Program-made: the position numbers and the translations under genes
In this document: positions 16,637 through 64,000 of the stretch, one piece after another
Position numbering within the stretch: position 1 is the first letter of the stretch
Layout: every line of letters starts with the position of its first letter
NCBI GenBank assembly: GCA_963820525.1
Contig: CAWGAA010000001.1
Location: forward strand, 768,001-832,000
Reading direction: 5' to 3'
Source: an uncultured Spirochaetota bacterium
GTDB taxonomy: Bacteria; Spirochaetota; Spirochaetia; SZUA-6; Fen-1364
Length of the DNA: 64,000 nt
Notes under the pieces: generated by a model
Database searches by the model: none
What the model saw: only the letters and a program-made list of their open reading frames with translations
What the model was told of the DNA's origin: nothing

Positions 16637-17722
16637 ATGATACGCAATCGCTTTTCTAAGATTCTCACTCAAATGTTTAGCATAATATTTGCTTTTTTTA
16701 TTCTCGCTAATACTGTTTTTGCAGATGATTCACATATTTATATGGGTTCCATTATTAACAGAAACAAGATATTCTTATCAATTGATAATGGGTCAACGAC
16801 TATTCGTATTCCAGAAGCTTATAATATTATTTCTCCATCTTCATATAATCCATTATCAAGACTTATCTTATTGAGCAAGAGCAATTCTTTGTATGTATTT
16901 AATTGCGACTCATCTAAAATAAATCCCATTTTGACCAATTTTAAACCAAATAATAGCGAAATTGAAATTATTCAATCTGTTAGCGATGATAATTCCTTTC
17001 TAATTTCTACATATTCTATCAGTGAAGATTCTATTTATTCAGAAAAACACTATAATGATTATTACTTCCTTAATGCAATTTACAAACGCTATAGTAAAGT
17101 ACCAGAATTCCTAAATGCGATATTGAAAGATAATACAAATCAAATAGTCTATGATTCAGCTAATTCTTCAATTATAAAATGGCTTGCTGGTGAAGGTCGC
17201 TATATGCCCTTGCCAATAGAAATCATTGATCTAAAAACTGGTCTCTCTAGTGAGTTAATACGCGAAACCGATTTTCCAGTAGATCCACTGTTTAATATTA
17301 ATTATTATAATAATTTTCTTATTGGCACTCCTAAGAACATTTCTATAACTAATCAAGTATTTGTATACTCAATTAGAAGCAGCTTACTTAAGAAATATAC
17401 ATTATCTAACATTGAACATTTCGACTATGCATATTCTTCCATTTATGATGATAGTAGTGATTCTTTACTAATTGGTCAAAAAGATAGCATATTAAGGCTA
17501 AAACTACAGACTGCAAAAATAAGTGATGTATTAATTCATTCTGATAATAAAGTCTATCTAAATAAGATGTACTTAATATCTAATAGACTTGTTTATCAAA
17601 GTAATAATAAGATTGTCATCTTAGATCCAAACAACTTATCAATTATAAATACATATACTCTTATGGGAATCGACAAATCAAAACCGAATACCGAATTTGG
17701 GATTTTCAATTTGTCTGACTAA
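16637..17722 (+). CDS. Hypothetical exported protein (possibly beta-rich)
   Basis: SD AAGGAG, signal peptide (VFA-DD), fills the cassette. Confidence 0.75.
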   Translation: MIRNRFSKILTQMFSIIFAFFILANTVFADDSHIYMGSIINRNKIFLSIDNGSTTIRIPEAYNIISPSSYNPLSRLILLSKSNSLYVFNCDSSKINPILTNFKPNNSEIEIIQSVSDDNSFLISTYSISEDSIYSEKHYNDYYFLNAIYKRYSKVPEFLNAILKDNTNQIVYDSANSSIIKWLAGEGRYMPLPIEIIDLKTGLSSELIRETDFPVDPLFNINYYNNFLIGTPKNISITNQVFVYSIRSSLLKKYTLSNIEHFDYAYSSIYDDSSDSLLIGQKDSILRLKLQTAKISDVLIHSDNKVYLNKMYLISNRLVYQSNNKIVILDPNNLSIINTYTLMGIDKSKPNTEFGIFNLSD

Positions 17723-17787
17723 TTTTTTTGAGTTCTTGCATGATTCGGATGCAGGATAACATGCTGTTGGAGATTGTTTTAGAAATG

Positions 17788-19194
17788 TCAAGCAGTTTTT
17801 TTCGTGACCGCTTGTTTTTTCCTCCCCCCTTTTGTTCGCGTACCTTGAGCCTTGCAGTTCTTGACCTTCTTAGTACTCTTCGATTTATTTAATCTTGGGG
17901 ATGAGGGCGATATGTTGCTTTTGCGACTTTGATCGCCGCGGGTAACACCGCTTGCCATATCGCCTTCTCCCTCTTTCAGAATCTTTTGTCCCAAATCGTT
18001 TGCCTTCGATTCATTGAGGGCAGAAAGCTCACGAAAGATCACGCGTACAAGCGCTCGTGCCACCCTCTTAGTCGCCTCCAGGGGCCGCATTCCCGCCTTC
18101 ACAAGGTTCCTGTAATAACCCGCCAGGTGAGAGCCGGGATCGTAGAAGACCACGTTGCGCGCCGCCGTCATAAAAGCGTCCTTCAATCGATGGTTAAACA
18201 ACCGCGTAGGGATCATCATGGTGGTGTTGCCCGTTGTATGTTCCCTCATTCCCAAGCCACTGTAGCAGGCCAGGCTGTCCTCACGGGCGAATCGGCGAAT
18301 GTCGATGATCTCGGCAATCATCTTCGCCGCGGTGAGGGTCGCAATACCGCGGCGGCTTTTCAGGCACTGCACTGCGAGGTTCCCTTGAGTAAGGCTATCC
18401 AGCATCCCAAGAAGCTCGCTCTGCTCCCCTTTGAACCGCTCGATCTGTTGGGCGCTGTTTCTGATCACCAACGCGATCCCCGCGGAGATCGAGGGAAAGC
18501 TTTCGGCTGCCTCTCGCAGCTCCGCGATGAGCTCGCCCCGTCCCTTGTAGTTGCCTCCCCCCATCGCCTCCCGCATATCCGTCTGCGAAAGGCGTTTCCA
18601 TTCTCCAATGTCCGGCTTGGAGATAAAAAGAGTGAGAATCCCCTGGTTTTTGAGCACTTTTCCCCGCTGCTCGTTCTCCCTATTCTTGCCCCCGAGCAGC
18701 AGATACAGATCCGGGCAGGCGTACCGCAAAAGCTTCCACAGCCGGTTCATTTCCCCCGTCAGTTGATCGCTGAGGCTCTCCCAGCGGCGAGTAAGAGCTT
18801 GCAGCTCCATATCCGCGATCCACACACGCCGATACTGATCAAGCTTGCCCTGCGCCTCCAAGGCTAGAGCATACCTCGCAACCGATTCCGCGTCCCGCTC
18901 GTTATTCTTGTTCTGGCCCAGCACCGCCTTCCTGAACTTTTCCGTGTCCGCGGGTTTGAAGGAATGAAAGATCACTCCCCCTTCCCGCAGCGCCTTCTCG
19001 ATAGGTCGGCTCTGCCCATGAGTGCCTTCGATCCCCACGATCGGCTTCCCTTCGGCTTTCACCCAGCGAAGGAACTCACTCAAGCCATTCTGGCTCACCG
19101 AAAATCGTTTCGTAATCACCTGAGCTTTGCTGTCCTTGACCAACGCGCAGACAAATCCTGTGGAGTCCGGGTCTATTCCGATCGAACTGTTCAC
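17788..19194 (-). CDS. IS110 transposase / bridge recombinase
   Basis: GIDPD, GIEG and KNNERDA RuvC-like motifs; C-terminal RGIA...AEIIDIRRF...YSGL domain. Confidence 0.9.
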   Translation of the reverse strand: MNSSIGIDPDSTGFVCALVKDSKAQVITKRFSVSQNGLSEFLRWVKAEGKPIVGIEGTHGQSRPIEKALREGGVIFHSFKPADTEKFRKAVLGQNKNNERDAESVARYALALEAQGKLDQYRRVWIADMELQALTRRWESLSDQLTGEMNRLWKLLRYACPDLYLLLGGKNRENEQRGKVLKNQGILTLFISKPDIGEWKRLSQTDMREAMGGGNYKGRGELIAELREAAESFPSISAGIALVIRNSAQQIERFKGEQSELLGMLDSLTQGNLAVQCLKSRRGIATLTAAKMIAEIIDIRRFAREDSLACYSGLGMREHTTGNTTMMIPTRLFNHRLKDAFMTAARNVVFYDPGSHLAGYYRNLVKAGMRPLEATKRVARALVRVIFRELSALNESKANDLGQKILKEGEGDMASGVTRGDQSRKSNISPSSPRLNKSKSTKKVKNCKAQGTRTKGGRKKQAVTKKTA

Positions 19195-19227
19195 ACACTC
19201 ACCCCCAAATCCTTAAGGCGTATATAC

Positions 19228-19380
19228 CCGTTCCGTCATCCTTGTAGGGAGCCACTGCCTCGCGTGGAGGGCAGGCATTTGTTTTACATGACAAGAACGG
19301 CCCTTGTGGCGCTGGCAATCTCCAACAAGTCGTCTCCAGGACGGCAGCTGACAGCCCGAGCAACAACGCCACAAGGTGTT
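19228..19380 (-). ncRNA. Putative bridge RNA (target-binding loop 19302-19376, donor-binding loop 19228-19300); 5' end may extend further
   Basis: Two stem-closed loops. Their guide segments match attC (GTCAGCT, TGTTGGAG) and the IS ends (TAAAACAA, CCTACAAG). Confidence 0.85.
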
Positions 19381-20065
19381 CTCTATTCATACCGATCCAT
19401 GAGCGTCAATCCCCTTTTCCCACATATCCACAATCTGTTAGTCTCCCTCCCCCAGACCCCCTCCCTCGCTTACCGCCGTTGTCATTCTCTCCTCATGCAT
19501 ATATCCTACAAGTTGACGCCTTAGGTTGGTTTTACAACTGCTACCCTACTCCTTAGAACTATTTGTGCCGTGCTTTGGGCGGCGGCGCAACTCAACAGCG
19601 TCGTTATATCCACGCTAAAGAAATTCTTTGGGAGAATGTTTTGCTTGTTCTGTTTTGAATTACTCAAAGCAAATAAAGAATTCTCTTTCACAATCTTGCG
19701 GGTTTTACCTTGTTGAATTCTTTTGATACCTTTGCGCGGGCCATCTACGTTCCTGTTGGAACAGCTCGCGCACGTTAGCTAAAGGGGCATTAATTACCTT
19801 TTTTAGCATCACTTTCTTTCGCTTTGCCTGAATTCTATCATCAATCAACTAACCTGATATTTTATCCATATCGTGAAGCTTGTCCTTCGGCCCGCGCATA
19901 TTGGTCTGTTTCCGCGTAGATATAACATGCTGTTGGAGTTGACCGCCTAGGCGACGCTCCCCTACTTTCAACTACGCGCGGTAATGCATTTTGTGCTTGG
20001 ATGATTCGGGGCGGCAACTCAACAGCGTCGTTATATCCATCTAGATTTATATTGATTAGCGAAGA

Positions 20066-21073
20066 AAGGGGTATTTACTTGACTCTACCAATCTTTGTCT
20101 GGCCGACGCCAGCACGAACAAGCTCTCTGAAAGGCGCTGGGTCAACGGCCACTGCCTGTTGCAGAAGCCTATAGAATAGTTTTCCACGATGGGTTGAGGT
20201 GCGCCGATTGAACCGGAAGGTGAACTCGTCGAGGTAGAACTCAAGATGATCCCGAGATACCCCACCCTGATGAGTTCCCAACAACCATCTCTTCAGCAAG
20301 GATGCCACCCTGTGAACTCTGGGCATCAAAGTAGACGCGGACTTTCCGCTTCCGCTGATCAGTCGTAATTTATGCCGGTAGCCATGCTCATTGAGCCACT
20401 CATAACCTTCCCAGCCATCGGTGATCACAATGGATCCTGGCTCCACAGCATCTTGCACAAAAGGGCGGAGACTGTTCGCAGAAGCATCATCGATGCGACT
20501 CAATCTGATCCGACCGATGCCATTTCCATCCACTTGGGCTGCAATTACTACAAGGGCCTTGTTTCCGAGGTGCCGGCGGCCTCCTTCAGGCTCCACCCCA
20601 CCAACATAGGTTTCATCCACTTCGATCTTGCCCGTAAGGCGATCCCTGCCGGGCCGCACCATAGCTCGCCTGAGTTTCTGTAGACAGGCCCAAGCCGTTT
20701 TATAGCTTCCAAGCCCCAGCAAACGCTGGAGTCCCAAGGCACTGATCCCTTGTTTCTGATTCGTAACCCACCATATAGCTCTGAACCATGTTCGAAGGGG
20801 AAGATGGCTACGATGGAAGATTGTACCCGCAAGTGCGGAAGCCTGGTAACCGCAATTCGAGCACTTCAGAAGCCCTCGTCCCAACGACCAATATGCTACG
20901 CTGCGGCACCGCGGGCAGTGAAAGCCTTTAGGCCAGCGCAATTGGAGCAGGTAGGTACGGCAGTCCTCTTCATTCGAGAATCGTTCCTCGAACTCGCTGA
21001 GATTCTGAGGGAAATCCTCCATACCTCCAATATCCTAGCCCGGAAAGCTGGTAGAGTCAAGTAAATACCCCTT
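20066..21073 (-). mobile_element. IS1595-family element inside a family A cassette
   Basis: Perfect 25-bp IR AAGGGGTATTTACTTGACTCTACCA and 8-bp TSD AGCGAAGA. Confidence 0.92.
20075..21022 (-). CDS. IS1595 transposase
   Basis: Zn ribbon CPRC/CSNC; EVDETY, TDGW and YLDEFTFRFNRR motifs. Confidence 0.93.
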   Translation of the reverse strand: MEDFPQNLSEFEERFSNEEDCRTYLLQLRWPKGFHCPRCRSVAYWSLGRGLLKCSNCGYQASALAGTIFHRSHLPLRTWFRAIWWVTNQKQGISALGLQRLLGLGSYKTAWACLQKLRRAMVRPGRDRLTGKIEVDETYVGGVEPEGGRRHLGNKALVVIAAQVDGNGIGRIRLSRIDDASANSLRPFVQDAVEPGSIVITDGWEGYEWLNEHGYRHKLRLISGSGKSASTLMPRVHRVASLLKRWLLGTHQGGVSRDHLEFYLDEFTFRFNRRTSTHRGKLFYRLLQQAVAVDPAPFRELVRAGVGQTKIGRVK

Positions 21074-58740: not shown

Positions 58741-60482
58741 CCCGCATTTCTCACAAATGGATATGAAAAAGCCTTTCGCTCTGGTATAATTGCTTTGCAA
58801 CAAACAAAATAAACCAGAACAGAAAGGCTATACGATGCAAACAGACTGTACACCATCCCTGTTTAGCTTTCAAGACCTTGGCAAGAAAAAGGTAGTCGGA
58901 AACTTCGACGGAGGCGCGATCAGTTCCGATGCCGGCGCTCTCATTCTTCGAGAGGTTGAACGCGCCACAGGCATCATCAAAGCATTCGCGGGCTGTTTCA
59001 CAGACTATCGAGAGAAAGGCTATATCGAGCATTCCATCGAGCAATTGATAAGCCAAAGGGTATTCGGCATTTGCCTGGGATACGAAGACCTCAACGATCA
59101 CGACCAGCTGCGCAAAGATCCCGTTCTGGCTGCCGTTTGCGGGAAACTCGATGTCAACGGGGAAACGAGGAGGCAGAAACGGGACAGAGGCAAAGCCCTT
59201 GCCGGAAAAAGCACGCTGAATCGGCTTGAGACCGCCGGCGGGGCAAGCCTCTCTACGCATCGATACAAGAAAATCACGGTGAACGAAACAATGGTTGGGA
59301 TGTTCCTGGTGAACACATTCCTGGCCAGTTATGAGCAAGCTCCTGAAGAAATCGTGTTGGATCTGGATGCAACCGACGACCCTCTGCACGGCAATCAAGA
59401 GGGCAGGTTCTTTCATGGCTATTATGATTGTTATTGCTACCTGCCGTTGTACATCTTCTGCGGGGATCATCTTTTATGTGCGAAGCTACGTCCCTCCAAT
59501 ATAGACGCATGTTCGGGTGCCGAGAAGGAGTTGGCGAGGATCGTTGCGCAGATCCGTGAGCGATGGCCGCAGGTACGTATTGTTGTGCGGGCCGACAGCG
59601 GGTTCTGCCGGGAAGCGATCATGGTGTGGTGCGAGTCCAACGACGTGGATTTCCTGTTCGGAATCGCGAAAAACGCACGCCTCTTACGCAAGATCCGCAA
59701 GGAGCTTTCAGAAGCCCGTAGGCAGTATCTGTCCACTGGTGAGCCGTCGCGAAAGTACGCGGAGCTGATCTATCGGACGAAAAAGACATGGTCGAAAAGC
59801 AGACGTGTTGTCGCCAAGGCGGAGTATCTGCGCAAGGGAGAGAACCCTCGGTTTGTGGTGACTTCACTTATGCAGGACCGCTTCCCTGGCCAGCAGCTGT
59901 ACGAGCAGCTCTATTGTGCTCGCGGAGACATGGAGAATCGTATCAAAGAACAGCAGCTTTACCTTTTTGCAGATCGAACCAGTTCCGCCACGATGAGGGC
60001 GAATCAGCTTCGGTTGTGGTTCTCCTCTGCGGCCTACGTAATCATGAGTGCCCTCAGAAGGACCGCTTTGAAGGGGACAGAGCTGGCCTCGGCACAGTGC
60101 GACACGATTCGTTTGAAGCTATTGAAGATTGGCGCACAGGTGCGCGTCAGTGTGCGCCGGATCTATGTGAGCTTCGCAAGCGGTTATCCATATCAAGAGC
60201 TTTTCCGTCAGGTGATTCTGAGTATTCACGAACTCTCCCTTCAATCGGGTTAGCGTGTATTGAGCCTTGTCTTGAGTAGTTTATTGGGAGAAGACTGTCC
60301 TGAAGTCGCCGAATCTTCCCTTATGAGCTGTAAAGTGCGCTCAATCGGGCGATTGGACTGACTCGGGTCACGAAATCGATCTACGTGTAGGGGCTGACAG
60401 CAAGGAATAGACCGTTTTTCAAAGTTGAGCCCCGCCTCATGATGATCAGACTGCGCAGAGTGCCGTTTGTGAGAAATGCGGG
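58741..60482 (+). mobile_element. IS1380-family element (diverged isoform)
   Basis: IR CCCGCATTTCTCACAAA; TSD CTAA. Confidence 0.92.
58835..60253 (+). CDS. IS1380 transposase
   Basis: Close homolog of 37255-38673. Confidence 0.93.
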   Translation: MQTDCTPSLFSFQDLGKKKVVGNFDGGAISSDAGALILREVERATGIIKAFAGCFTDYREKGYIEHSIEQLISQRVFGICLGYEDLNDHDQLRKDPVLAAVCGKLDVNGETRRQKRDRGKALAGKSTLNRLETAGGASLSTHRYKKITVNETMVGMFLVNTFLASYEQAPEEIVLDLDATDDPLHGNQEGRFFHGYYDCYCYLPLYIFCGDHLLCAKLRPSNIDACSGAEKELARIVAQIRERWPQVRIVVRADSGFCREAIMVWCESNDVDFLFGIAKNARLLRKIRKELSEARRQYLSTGEPSRKYAELIYRTKKTWSKSRRVVAKAEYLRKGENPRFVVTSLMQDRFPGQQLYEQLYCARGDMENRIKEQQLYLFADRTSSATMRANQLRLWFSSAAYVIMSALRRTALKGTELASAQCDTIRLKLLKIGAQVRVSVRRIYVSFASGYPYQELFRQVILSIHELSLQSG

Positions 60483-61479: not shown

Positions 61480-62102
61480 TGTGATAGTTCAGATTTGATC
61501 TGACACTCTCTTTCTGGTTCCTATACTACGCTGTCCGTCGGATGGTATCCAATCATCTTCTCCTTCGCAACGTGAAACGTTTCCTGAAACGTCTGCATCG
61601 GGGTTTTGCCGTAGCAGTATTTCCCTGAATGGGGTCGTTGCTCGTTGTACTCCTTGATCCACACATCAACGTCAACTTGAAGCTCTTCAATTGATGTATA
61701 GATCTTTTTTCGGAACGCAACCTGGTAGAACTCATTGAGGACCGTCTTCTGGAACCTCTCGCAAATGCCATTGCTCTGGGGTGACTTCACTCTGGTCTTG
61801 GAGTTATCGATGTTCTCTACGGCCAGGTACAATTGATACTCATGATTCTCCCGATTGCCGCAGTATTCGATTCCTCGAGGATCCCATGCGTATCGAAGAA
61901 GGGAATGACCCGGTCGTTTCCCAGCTCCTGGGCCAATGTTGGCAATCCTACCTTGTTCTTAATGATCTTCTCTTCGGTTGTCATCTGACACCTCCTGGCG
62001 TGCGCGTTTGGGCATGGCTGCATGAATCTGGGCGCCGATGGCCTCTGGAATCCATTTGCGAACGACTCTGGACATGATCGTATCTAATTACCCTGCTCTA
62101 CA
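61480..62102 (-). pseudogene. Internally deleted IS481-family remnant
   Basis: TGT...ACA ends; fragments MTTEEKIIKNKVGL and SPQSNGICERF..YNEQRPHSG. Confidence 0.8.
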
Positions 62103-62182
62103 AACGACGCATAAAAGACTCCTGCTCATACGCCACTTCTTCTCCTCACTAATTCTTCTCCTTTCAGTCATATGCAATTATT

Positions 62183-63460
62183 TTAGACCCAGAAATCCTT
62201 GTTTATCTTGGTTGAGCTTGATAACAAGCCATCATGGCCTTCATTTGGAATGCTGCGGGCCAAACATTTATCATCCTTGCAGATTTCATTAAGTCTCCTG
62301 TAGACCACTCGAACAATAGCGCGCGCCACCCTTTTTCTCGCCTCCATGGGACGCATCCCGCCATCAACATGGTTTCTGTGATAGCAGGCGATACGAGATT
62401 CAGGGTTATAAAACACGACAGCCCCGGCTGCGGTCATGAATGCATCTTTCAGCCGGTGATTAAATGACTGAGTATGCACCATTCTGACGGCACCTCCCGT
62501 TGAATGTTCTTTCATTCCAAGACCGCCATAACTAGCGAGACTATCCTCCTTTGAAAATCTCCTAATATCTATGATCTCAGCAACCATTGTCGATGCAGTA
62601 ATAAGCCCAATTCCTCTGAGTTGTCGCAGAGACTGTATTGGTAGGCTTTTTCTGCTGATTGAATTCAGCATTTTAATAAGTTCGATCTGCTCGCGTTTAT
62701 AGTGCTCGATTTTCGAAGCACTGGCTCTGATCATAAAGGCTATCGTGGGCGAGAGTGAGGGGATGCATTGCATGACGCTCTCTAGTCCTCGAATGAATTC
62801 GTTTCGCCCCTTGTAATTTCCAGCCCCCATTGCCTCGAGCAGTTGACGATCAGAGAGGTGCTTCCACTCACCTACGTCCGGAATTGAGATCAGAAGCGTG
62901 AGGATTCCCCTGTTCTTCAGCACATTTCCGCCGCATCCCGCATCGGAGAGCTTTCCGCCTAGAAATAGATATAAATCAGGGGAGGCATGCCGTAGTATTT
63001 TCCAGAGACGATTCACTTCCGCTGTGATCTCCCGACTGAGGCTTTTATGCTCACGTGTGAGCAATTGAAGCTCAGAGTCTGCGAACCAAAGTCGTCGGTG
63101 CTGCTGCAGCTTTCCCTGCGATTCCAAGGCAAGTGCGTATCGCGCCACGGACTCCGCATCCCGCTCGTTGTTCTTGTTTTGCCCTAGAACCGCTTTCCTG
63201 AACTTCTCAACGTCAGCCGGCTTGAACGAATAGAACTCGACACGAGCATTTCGCAGCGCTTCTTCTATTGGCCTGCTCTGGCCATGGCTTCCTTCTATTG
63301 CTACAATCAGCCCCTCCTCCGCCCCCGCCCATTGATTAAATTCACTGAGACTCTTCGCCGTTACCAGAAATCTCTTCGTCACCACTCTATCATTTTTACC
63401 ACGTACCAGAGCGCAGACAAACCCCGTTGAGTCAGGATCGATGCCAAGCGCGCTATTCAC
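62183..63460 (-). CDS. IS110 transposase paralog
   Basis: Clear homolog of 17788-19194 (GIDPDSTGFVCALV, FRKAVLGQNKNNERDAESVARYALALE). Confidence 0.88.
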   Translation of the reverse strand: MNSALGIDPDSTGFVCALVRGKNDRVVTKRFLVTAKSLSEFNQWAGAEEGLIVAIEGSHGQSRPIEEALRNARVEFYSFKPADVEKFRKAVLGQNKNNERDAESVARYALALESQGKLQQHRRLWFADSELQLLTREHKSLSREITAEVNRLWKILRHASPDLYLFLGGKLSDAGCGGNVLKNRGILTLLISIPDVGEWKHLSDRQLLEAMGAGNYKGRNEFIRGLESVMQCIPSLSPTIAFMIRASASKIEHYKREQIELIKMLNSISRKSLPIQSLRQLRGIGLITASTMVAEIIDIRRFSKEDSLASYGGLGMKEHSTGGAVRMVHTQSFNHRLKDAFMTAAGAVVFYNPESRIACYHRNHVDGGMRPMEARKRVARAIVRVVYRRLNEICKDDKCLARSIPNEGHDGLLSSSTKINKDFWV

Positions 63461-63501
63461 TACCGCACCTCCCGCATCTTCATATCAGATACGCCAATCA
63501 C

Positions 63502-63640
63502 CCGCTTCCGTTGGGAGTTCATTCGTTTTCTGCAGATATGCCCCATCAGGGAGAGCAAAAGCGGTCCCCTGTGGCGTTGGCAATCTCCAACAAGTCGCTT
63601 CTATCGACATCTGACACAAAAGCATCAACGCCACAAGGGG
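63502..63640 (-). ncRNA. Diverged bridge-RNA homolog (target loop kept, donor loop degenerate)
   Basis: CTGTGGCGTTGGCAATCTCCAACAAGTCG...CTGACA...CAACGCCACAAGG is homologous to 19302-19376. Confidence 0.7.
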
Positions 63641-64000
63641 TCCTCTGCACACGATATGCTATTTTTCGGCATATATTTCACACGAGCATCAAACTATGCT
63701 ATATATCGGGCAGCATATGTCCTAGAATTAGAAATCATTATTATGCCGCCCAAAGACAACATCAACTCCCACCGCGCTTGGTTTTCGTCCTTACTCATAC
63801 GGCGCAACGACGATTCTCCTGCTCTTTCGGGCGCTCGCGAGTCAGGACGCGGCTGCGGCAGGAGGCAGAGAGCAAAAGCAGGATGAGCGCGGACGAATAC
63901 GACAGCTTTCGCGATAGTGGCAGTCAGCGTGCCTTCACCAACTCCGAGGCGATCAAGCAGCCAAGCCGGACATTCTCGTGAAAGAGAGCAACGTTTGTTG

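Follow-up and report, generated by a model that had tools for sequence, protein, structure and literature searches.

An IS110-group insertion sequence with an upstream bridge RNA that appears programmed for integron attC sites in an uncultured Spirochaetota bacterium

The DNA analysed here (64,000 nucleotides, assembly GCA_963820525.1, contig CAWGAA010000001.1, positions 768,001 to 832,000; the whole stretch is called the window) comes from an uncultured Spirochaetota bacterium and contains an IS110-family insertion sequence (IS), IS-A, which splits an integron attC site. IS-A measures 1,740 bp (window 17773-19512, minus strand, a size that includes the core copy at 19511-19512); long non-coding DNA of 316 nt precedes its open reading frame (ORF), and 15 nt follow it. 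The features at the locus are the following, in window coordinates.

17756-17772, plus strand: left part of the split attC, with the R'' core ATAAC at 17756-17760 and the AG core at 17771-17772; the arm is identical to that of the intact attC at 19922-19938
17773-19512, minus strand: IS-A, IS110-group insertion sequence, present as one full copy in the genome; its relatives share its end sequences
17773-17791, minus strand: right end of IS-A, TTGACA (17786-17791, overlapping the TGA stop) followed by TTTC TAAAACAAT
17788-19194, minus strand: transposase or bridge recombinase, 468 aa, GTG start, identified by Pfam and NCBIfam domains and a match to IS621 (8wt6)
19219-19381, minus strand: bridge RNA, a target-binding loop followed by a donor-binding loop, identified by helix covariation and by a covariance-model hit (its own sequence is in the model)
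19241-19248, minus strand: right donor guide CCUACA-AG (CCUACAAG), complement of the left end CT-TGTAGG
19279-19286, minus strand: left donor guide UAAAACAA, which reads in the same sense as TAAAACAAT-CT of the right end
19316-19319, minus strand: candidate handshake guide AUUG, which immediately follows the right target guide on its 3' side and is complementary to CAAT, the final 4 nt of the right end
19320-19326, minus strand: right target guide GUUGG-AG, complement of the right flank CT-CCAAC (top strand), with flank covariation
19346-19352, minus strand: left target guide GUCAG-CU, same sense as the left flank GTCAA-CT, with flank covariation
19497-19512, minus strand: left end CT-TGTAGGATATATGC, containing the -10 box of the junction promoter, TAGGAT (19503-19508)
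19513-19609, plus strand: right part of the split attC, from TTGAC to the R' sequence GTTATAT; inverted-repeat score z 6.3 versus shuffles
19922-20034, plus strand: intact neighbouring attC, used as the model of the empty site, with arms as in the split site

The attC is split at its CT/AG core, and the AG (CT) dinucleotide is present at both junctions. On the plus strand the site reads ATAACATGCTGTTGGAG, then IS-A, then TTGACGCC...GTTATAT, with the flanking attC arms R'' ATAAC at 17756-17760 and R' GTTAT at 19603-19607. The same two arms are joined in the uninterrupted neighbouring attC, which shows that the insertion of IS-A was precise. An earlier interpretation made from the letters alone (the sequence-only reading) had described an attC interrupted at AG, or CT in element orientation, and the empty-site neighbour agrees with it. 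In the orientation of the element, the first bases of the right attC part form the left target half GTCAA and the left attC part forms the right target half CT-CCAAC, and the target of IS-A reads GTCAA-CT-CCAAC. The inverse cores ATAAC ... GTTAT are present and the site is an imperfect palindrome. The bottom strand of the intact attC folded into an imperfect hairpin (z -3.88 versus shuffles) with two single-base bulges; the 12-bp IS target includes both bulged bases, the T of GGTCAA and the C of CTCCAAC. Their position sets the arm apart from its palindromic partner, GCAA-CT-CAAC, in which the two bases are missing, and fixes the orientation of the insertion.

With up to 3 mismatches allowed, the window contains 37 occurrences of the arm motif, 36 of them on the plus strand, compared to 1.46 in shuffled sequence. 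Genome-wide, 80 occurrences were found with up to 1 mismatch, 75 of them co-oriented on the plus strand (C1:683773-824284). An integron integrase (TIGR02249, 410.7 bits, cut-off 265) is encoded on the opposite strand at the head of this array (G000:C1:682092-683030, minus strand). From the integrase at the head and the co-oriented motifs, the window can be placed within a chromosomal integron that spans about 141 kb. The five bases following GTTGGAG in this array (G000:C1:683000-825000) were TTGAC (50), TTGTC (36) or CAGAC (28), and IS-A occupies an attC of the TTGAC type. A second integron integrase (448.6 bits, G000:C1:1954228-1955157) is accompanied by three attC motifs of the same type at 1957460-1963683.

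The product of the ORF carries both IS110 domains above their curated thresholds, the N-terminal RuvC-like DEDD_Tnp_IS110 (PF01548; 66.2 bits, cut-off 29, E 3.8e-18) and the C-terminal Transposase_20 (PF02371; 49.5 bits, cut-off 21.3, E 5.7e-13), in agreement with its earlier assignment as an IS110 transposase. The NCBIfam model 'IS110 family RNA-guided transposase' (NF033542) scored 140.6 bits, barely above its cut-off of 140. The sole solved relative detected by sequence was the IS621 recombinase (8wt6, E 5e-5), and residues D8, E56 and D101 of IS-A align with D11, E60 and D105 of IS621. The protein ends in a Lys/Ser-rich tail of about 75 aa (residues ~395-468, window 17788-18010), which includes a conserved stretch, lacks a counterpart in IS621 (326 aa) and is also missing in IS-B, a decayed relative of IS-A in the same genome.

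Guide RNAs of IS110/IS1111 elements, termed bridge RNAs or seekRNAs, were described in 2024 (PMC11208160, PMC11208158, PMC11187229). In the non-coding end of IS-A, the sequence-only reading had placed four guide motifs within two stem-closed loops. All four lie at the claimed places on the minus strand, GGCTGTCAGCT at 19346-19356, TGTTGGAG at 19320-19327, TAAAACAA at 19279-19286 and CCTACAAG at 19241-19248, as do the stem of loop 1, CCTTGTGGCG/CGCCACAAGG (19367-19376 and 19302-19311), and that of loop 2, CCGTTC/GAACGG (19295-19300 and 19228-19233). When the 316-nt end was shuffled 200,000 times, no shuffle contained all four motifs and 340 contained two or more.

For comparison, 426 transposase relatives were found at E <= 0.001, the best 120 of the 426 being 56-99% identical to the protein of IS-A. 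Five loci (numbers with the prefix L denote loci of relatives) came from species genomes, namely four Spirochaetota metagenome-assembled genomes and one short Bacteroidetes fragment; 154 metagenome stretches encoded a relative, and 80 of these were used. The alignment comprised 75 loci with at least 215 nt upstream of the gene, of which 62 distinct sequences served for the structure. RNAalifold predicted five helices in this set. Loop 1 has an outer stem and an inner hairpin, and loop 2 has an inner hairpin and two outer stems. Together these helices comprise 38 pairs, 18 of which showed compensatory changes. The cells of these helices were paired in 95.8% of cases, compared to 33-60.5% when the partners were slid, and none of 500 shuffles matched any of five structure measures. 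The frequent G-U pairs (for example 21 of the 62 sequences at one pair) fit an RNA read from the minus strand. In the alignment the scaffold was nearly invariant apart from two short hypervariable blocks within loop 1. The two stem-closed loops are thus borne out by compensatory changes across relatives, whereas the fold of the single leader sequence did not stand out from its shuffles (z = +1.03); the support for the structure comes from covariation, not from energy. An E-value search of Rfam over 17000-20500 gave one match, to a long non-coding RNA, which was judged to be due to chance and dropped.

The predicted pairing of the left target guide is with the bottom strand, with a G.T pair at position -1. 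Guides and flanks were compared across relatives with one locus per distinct guide 7-mer and with the ends located by general patterns. Left guides matched the left flanks, in the same sense, at 131 of 217 positions in 31 guide classes (shuffled 64.9 +/- 7.4), and right guides matched the reverse complement of the right flanks at 132 of 189 positions in 27 classes (shuffled 62.7 +/- 7.3); in each case 0 of 10,000 shuffles reached the observed value, a test that overstates independence because kin share guides and targets. The relatives contained 46 different guide pairs. Positions -1 to -5 matched in 21-26 of the 31 classes for the left guide and in 22-24 of the 27 for the right guide, and positions -6 and -7 were at chance level (6-9 matches). 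Covariation is therefore confined to five positions beside the core on each side, which gives a target of about 5 + CT + 5 = 12 bp. The guides of 11 nt (left) and 8 nt (right) proposed in the sequence-only reading were too long, since only GTCAG-CT and GTTGG-AG, of 7 nt each, lie in covarying positions, but its proposal of RNA-guided targeting is supported by the covariation itself. The locus L011 illustrates this: its transposase is about 86% identical to that of IS-A, its guides differ, and its site follows its own guides.

Guides were of attC type in 30 of the 78 loci, of other types in 40 and could not be parsed in 8. Where the flanks were long enough, a palindromic partner arm (z >= 2.5) was found for 13 of 18 loci with attC-type guides versus 0 of 11 with other guides, and several attC-type loci carried a canonical R', for example GTTAGGC. 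The attC-type guides follow attC subtypes (GTCAA, GACAG, GACTG, GTCTG and GACAA on one side; TTGGAG, CTGGAG and TTGCAG on the other). They fell into at least two separate groups in a midpoint-rooted FastTree tree without support values, computed from the first 395 aa of 64 distinct proteins after loci with ORFs below 400 aa had been dropped. The clade was present in 7 of the 41 related genomes searched, this genome counted, and a search of 72,556 plasmid records at E 1e-20 gave no relative. A second recurrent target, an imperfect palindrome of about GCGTGGCGGGC-CT-ACAACGC, was seen in L011 and L087 and also in L019, L075, L046, L007 and L020; relatives of the L011/L087 type are about 86% identical to the IS-A transposase, and a distant branch of the family shares their target.

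The guide motifs, their two stems and the split attC are thus confirmed at the stated coordinates, and the interpretation of IS-A as an RNA-guided, attC-specific element is supported. IS-A is in all likelihood an intact IS110-group insertion sequence, with a left-end bridge RNA, that is programmed for the R''-L'' arm of an integron attC.

In the donor loop, the left donor guide and the right end changed together in L079 and L083, and the right donor guide and the left end changed together in L027 and L035. Clades with the guides CUACAAG (CTACAAG) and UUACAAG (TTACAAG) have the ends CTTGTAGG and CTTGTAAG, a clade-level A/G switch. As the ends are conserved, few tests of the donor guides were available, and those available agree. 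The ends had been searched with the guide of each locus, which is partly circular; they lay at the expected distance and were found again with general patterns. With the motifs in place and compensations in these four loci, the earlier statement that loop 2 matches both IS ends holds. In the target loop, the complementarity between AUUG and CAAT forms part of a 12-nt perfect inverted repeat in IS-A. It was kept in 45 of 48 loci, all but L051, L079 and L083, and both sides changed together in the L057-59 lineage and in L070. The target-loop handshake guide of IS621 occupies the equivalent position; in that element, handshake guides come after the right guides on the 3' side and pair with the other DNA once strands have been exchanged.

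When the right and left ends were abutted in silico, they formed TTGACA-17 nt-TAGGAT, a predicted promoter of sigma-70 type that exists only at the junction. Its -35 box is contributed by the right end, which also contributes the left-donor sequence. Matches at 9 or more of 12 positions were obtained at the junction in 33 of 39 loci, compared to 6 of 39 when the right end was read on into its flank and 1 of 39 when the flank was read on into the left end. An internal promoter had been considered from a conserved TTGAC, seen by eye about 30 nt upstream of the target loop, and was dropped for want of a convincing -10 box. In the attC-inserted loci L009, L010, L012, L013, L015 and L017, the TTGACA of the right end forms TTGACA-17-AACGAT with the flank (9 of 12), which may possibly act as an outward promoter, antisense into the upstream cassette.

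From these observations the following cycle can be proposed. IS-A would leave as a circle, in which the right and left ends, abutted at the CT core, would create the TTGACA-17 nt-TAGGAT promoter and drive expression of the leader, the bridge RNA and the recombinase gene. The donor loop would hold the circle junction and the target loop an attC. After top-strand exchange, the AUUG beside the right target guide would pair with the CAAT of the incoming right end, and recombination at CT would insert IS-A antisense to the cassettes, 12 nt from the R'' core, parting R'' from the remaining attC. Transcription of the RNA, its binding by the recombinase, circle formation and the chemistry are all presumed by analogy with IS621 and ISEc21.

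The layout of IS-A is that of IS621, as the sequence-only reading had supposed: the RNA lies upstream of the gene, and each of the two loops carries its bottom-strand guide on the 5' side and its top-strand guide on the 3' side. It thereby follows the strand rule of IS621 and ISEc21, which assigns the bottom strand to the 5' guide and the top strand to the 3' guide and counts the core as part of the pairing (Durrant et al. 2024, PMC11208160; Hiraizumi et al. 2024, PMC11208158; Siddiquee et al. 2024, PMC11187229). With IS621 it further shares the RuvC-like and Tnp domains, a left-end bridge RNA with two internal loops, the CT core within the guides and a circle-junction promoter, predicted in IS-A; its AUUG is a candidate for the handshake bases that IS621 has next to the right target guide. 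It differs in its very distant sequence (E 5e-5), in its length of 468 aa including the tail of about 75 aa versus 326 aa, in Asn and Thr in place of D102 and S241, in guides of 5 + 2 nt on both sides, in the 4 nt of the candidate handshake and in its target, an integron attC arm instead of an Escherichia coli repeat. ISEc21 likewise has an upstream guide-RNA region, a bottom-strand match 5' of the top-strand match and natural retargeting among relatives; compared by description, it differs from IS-A in targeting a conserved stretch within IS3-family transposase genes (PMC11187229).

The nearest precedent in target choice is the IS1111-attC group (ISPa21, ISPst6, ISKpn4, ISPa25), known from Pseudomonas and clinical integrons. 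RNA-guided attC targeting was already shown for its members ISKpn4 and ISPst6 (Siddiquee 2024, PMC11187229), and like IS-A these are DEDD-type elements that insert site-specifically near the attC 5' end, antisense to the cassettes (PMC11187229, PMC3001079). IS-A could therefore be taken for a member of this group, with which it has the attC target class and the two Pfam domains in common. In the IS1111-attC elements, however, the gene precedes the guide RNA and the two guides stand in the reverse order, whereas IS-A has 15 nt after its stop codon and both loops in the 316-nt region upstream, with a guide order opposite to that of IS1111 seekRNAs. IS1111 transposases measure 330-350 aa instead of 468 aa, and IS1111 elements carry subterminal inverted repeats of 7-17 bp (PMC11187229); no inverted repeat joining both ends of IS-A was present among the 25 longest of 91 inverted pairs. 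Membership of the IS1111-attC group is the least probable of the explanations considered, and the earlier assignment to the left-end, IS110-group type is retained. An explanation in which the protein itself reads the sequence or structure of attC, the guide-like matches in the leader being incidental or remnants of target DNA, is scarcely better placed and seems very improbable. It draws on the fact that attC sites are structured palindromes bound by proteins such as IntI, and is opposed by flanks that follow the guides across 46 guide pairs, non-attC targets included, by the retargeting of the ~86% identical L011 to a different repeat and by variable guides within a nearly invariant scaffold.

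Several observations weigh against the interpretation of IS-A as a bridge-RNA element programmed for attC, or against parts of it. No Rfam family was detected in the whole window at gathering thresholds, and the folding energy of the 320-nt leader, as given above, is no better than that of its shuffles. In the left-guide comparison, 43 of 205 cells were non-wobble mismatches, many of which, judged by eye and unscored, reflect a register shift or parsing in about eight loci (L057, L011, L019, L075, L087, L035, L084 and L070), in which a one-base shift of the guide would improve its fit to the flank. The left donor guide mismatches two core-adjacent bases in most relatives, a handshake pairing in the donor loop was not seen (by eye only, unscored), and a sigma-70 scan called no such site on the minus strand of the integrated IS-A. 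The 12-mer that matches the IS-A guides perfectly has 0 copies in the genome, and 55 genomic 12-mers fit with a single G.T wobble, yet one full copy of IS-A is present. The sequence-only reading had suggested that the guide might read both the AGCTGAC and the AGTTGAC subtypes of attC by wobble. The former subtype is absent from this genome (GTTGGAGCTGAC, 0 copies, versus GTTGGAGTTGAC, 55) and is found beside relatives, as attCs with a perfect match to GTCAG-CT adjoin L022 and L039. A guide G lies opposite T at the same position in three loci (WA, L051 and L066). A G-T wobble reading of the IS-A target is therefore plausible, and the recurrence in L051 and L066 suggests that G opposite T is tolerated. 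The same observations may equally be explained, in a way compatible with the programmed-element interpretation, if its class is right and this particular copy is stranded: it would have come from a host with GTCAG-CT attCs, inserted once by wobble and be inactive or barely active now. One copy among 55 candidate sites, the zero perfect-match sites, the attCs beside L022 and L039, the lack of a promoter-like site before the RNA in the integrated state and the decayed IS-B in the same array all fit this, against which stand an intact ORF, two intact loops, intact ends that match the donor guides, and the recurrence of G opposite T. A stranded copy appears unlikely on balance, although far less so than the two preceding explanations.

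The active site also departs from that of IS621, a further point against the interpretation. N98 and T321 of IS-A align with D102 and S241, both essential in IS621, where mutation of either abolishes activity and D102 hydrogen-bonds the S241-bearing loop; the pairing of T321 with S241 comes from a weak second alignment stretch (4.7 bits), in which the spacing GL-6 residues-(S/T)-G is preserved. Among 118 aligned close relatives, residue 98 is N in 114 and D in 4, and residue 321 is T in 109 and S in 9, the neighbouring residue 320 being A or K. Compared to IS621, the hydroxyl and hydrogen-bonding chemistry may thus be kept with the residues changed. Recent movement within the clade is indicated by two copies (L009 and L010) in adjacent attCs of one contig and by near-identical copies with differing flanks (L057/L058, L063/L064 and L029/L032). 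Since copies have moved recently, the N98 and T321 substitutions are probably functional, in which case the nucleophile of the clade would probably be threonine. More tentatively, and as a reading just short of evenly balanced, the clade could be a working mechanistic variant, with T321 for the catalytic serine and N98 for the third aspartate of the DEDD set, that reached attC targeting independently of the IS1111-attC group, reads both extrahelical attC bases and tolerates the rG.dT wobble.

The genome contains, besides the one full copy of IS-A, a single decayed relative, and no further IS110 paralogue was found by tblastn.

62150-63727 (approximate), minus strand: IS-B, decayed relative of IS-A, with an open 425-aa transposase frame at 62183-63460 (61% identical)

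The target loop of IS-B is intact (63541-63616) with the same right guide as IS-A, its donor loop is rearranged and its ends have diverged. Its bridge RNA was hit by the covariance model with 57.6 bits (E 8e-15), IS-B being outside the model. IS-B is situated past the final attC of the array and adjoins a broken rve_3 transposase fragment. Footprints of IS1111-attC elements at array ends have reportedly been seen as well.

The array is heavily colonised by insertion sequences. Two IS30-like copies (HTH_38 + rve, 338 aa; window 12998-c.14085 and 22630-c.23717) each end directly at an attC R'' core (TAAC) and may therefore be site-specific for attC borders. Other transposases in or after the array are an IS1595 member (20075-21022) in the cassette beside IS-A, a DDE_Tnp_1_4 protein (58790-60253) and the rve_3 fragment (61521-61832).

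In summary, the bridge/seekRNA mechanism and attC as a target of the IS1111-attC group were known, and what appears new is an IS110-type branch that converges on attC. The literature searched gave no paper on attC-targeting elements with an upstream non-coding region (IS110 type), and in the supplements of Durrant 2024, as far as readable, the word 'integron' and the two 12-mers do not occur. Group IIC-attC introns (PMC3001079) resemble IS-A in using RNA and in lying near the attC 5' end in antisense orientation; they are retro-elements with a ribozyme and a reverse transcriptase, and their mechanism is unrelated to that of IS-A. The attC sites appear to be parasitised by both RNA-guided branches, IS110 and IS1111, and by group IIC introns, all at the 5' arm and antisense, which points to a common selective logic: attC sites are abundant, repeated and safe to interrupt.

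The approximately 46 retargeted guide pairs on one near-invariant scaffold form a natural series from which targeting rules can be learned, including the 5 + 2 + 5 bp target, the tolerance of wobble and the 4-nt handshake stretch. If functional, the Asn/Thr active site extends the known chemistry of bridge recombinases. If the variant mechanism holds, a 12-bp target spanning both extrahelical bases would exploit the same asymmetry of the arm that the integron integrase uses, and rG.dT tolerance would broaden the attC subtypes within reach of each guide. Finally, as the insertion parts R'' from the rest of the attC, the cassette boundary should freeze until the element leaves, which bears on the end-decay of large chromosomal arrays.

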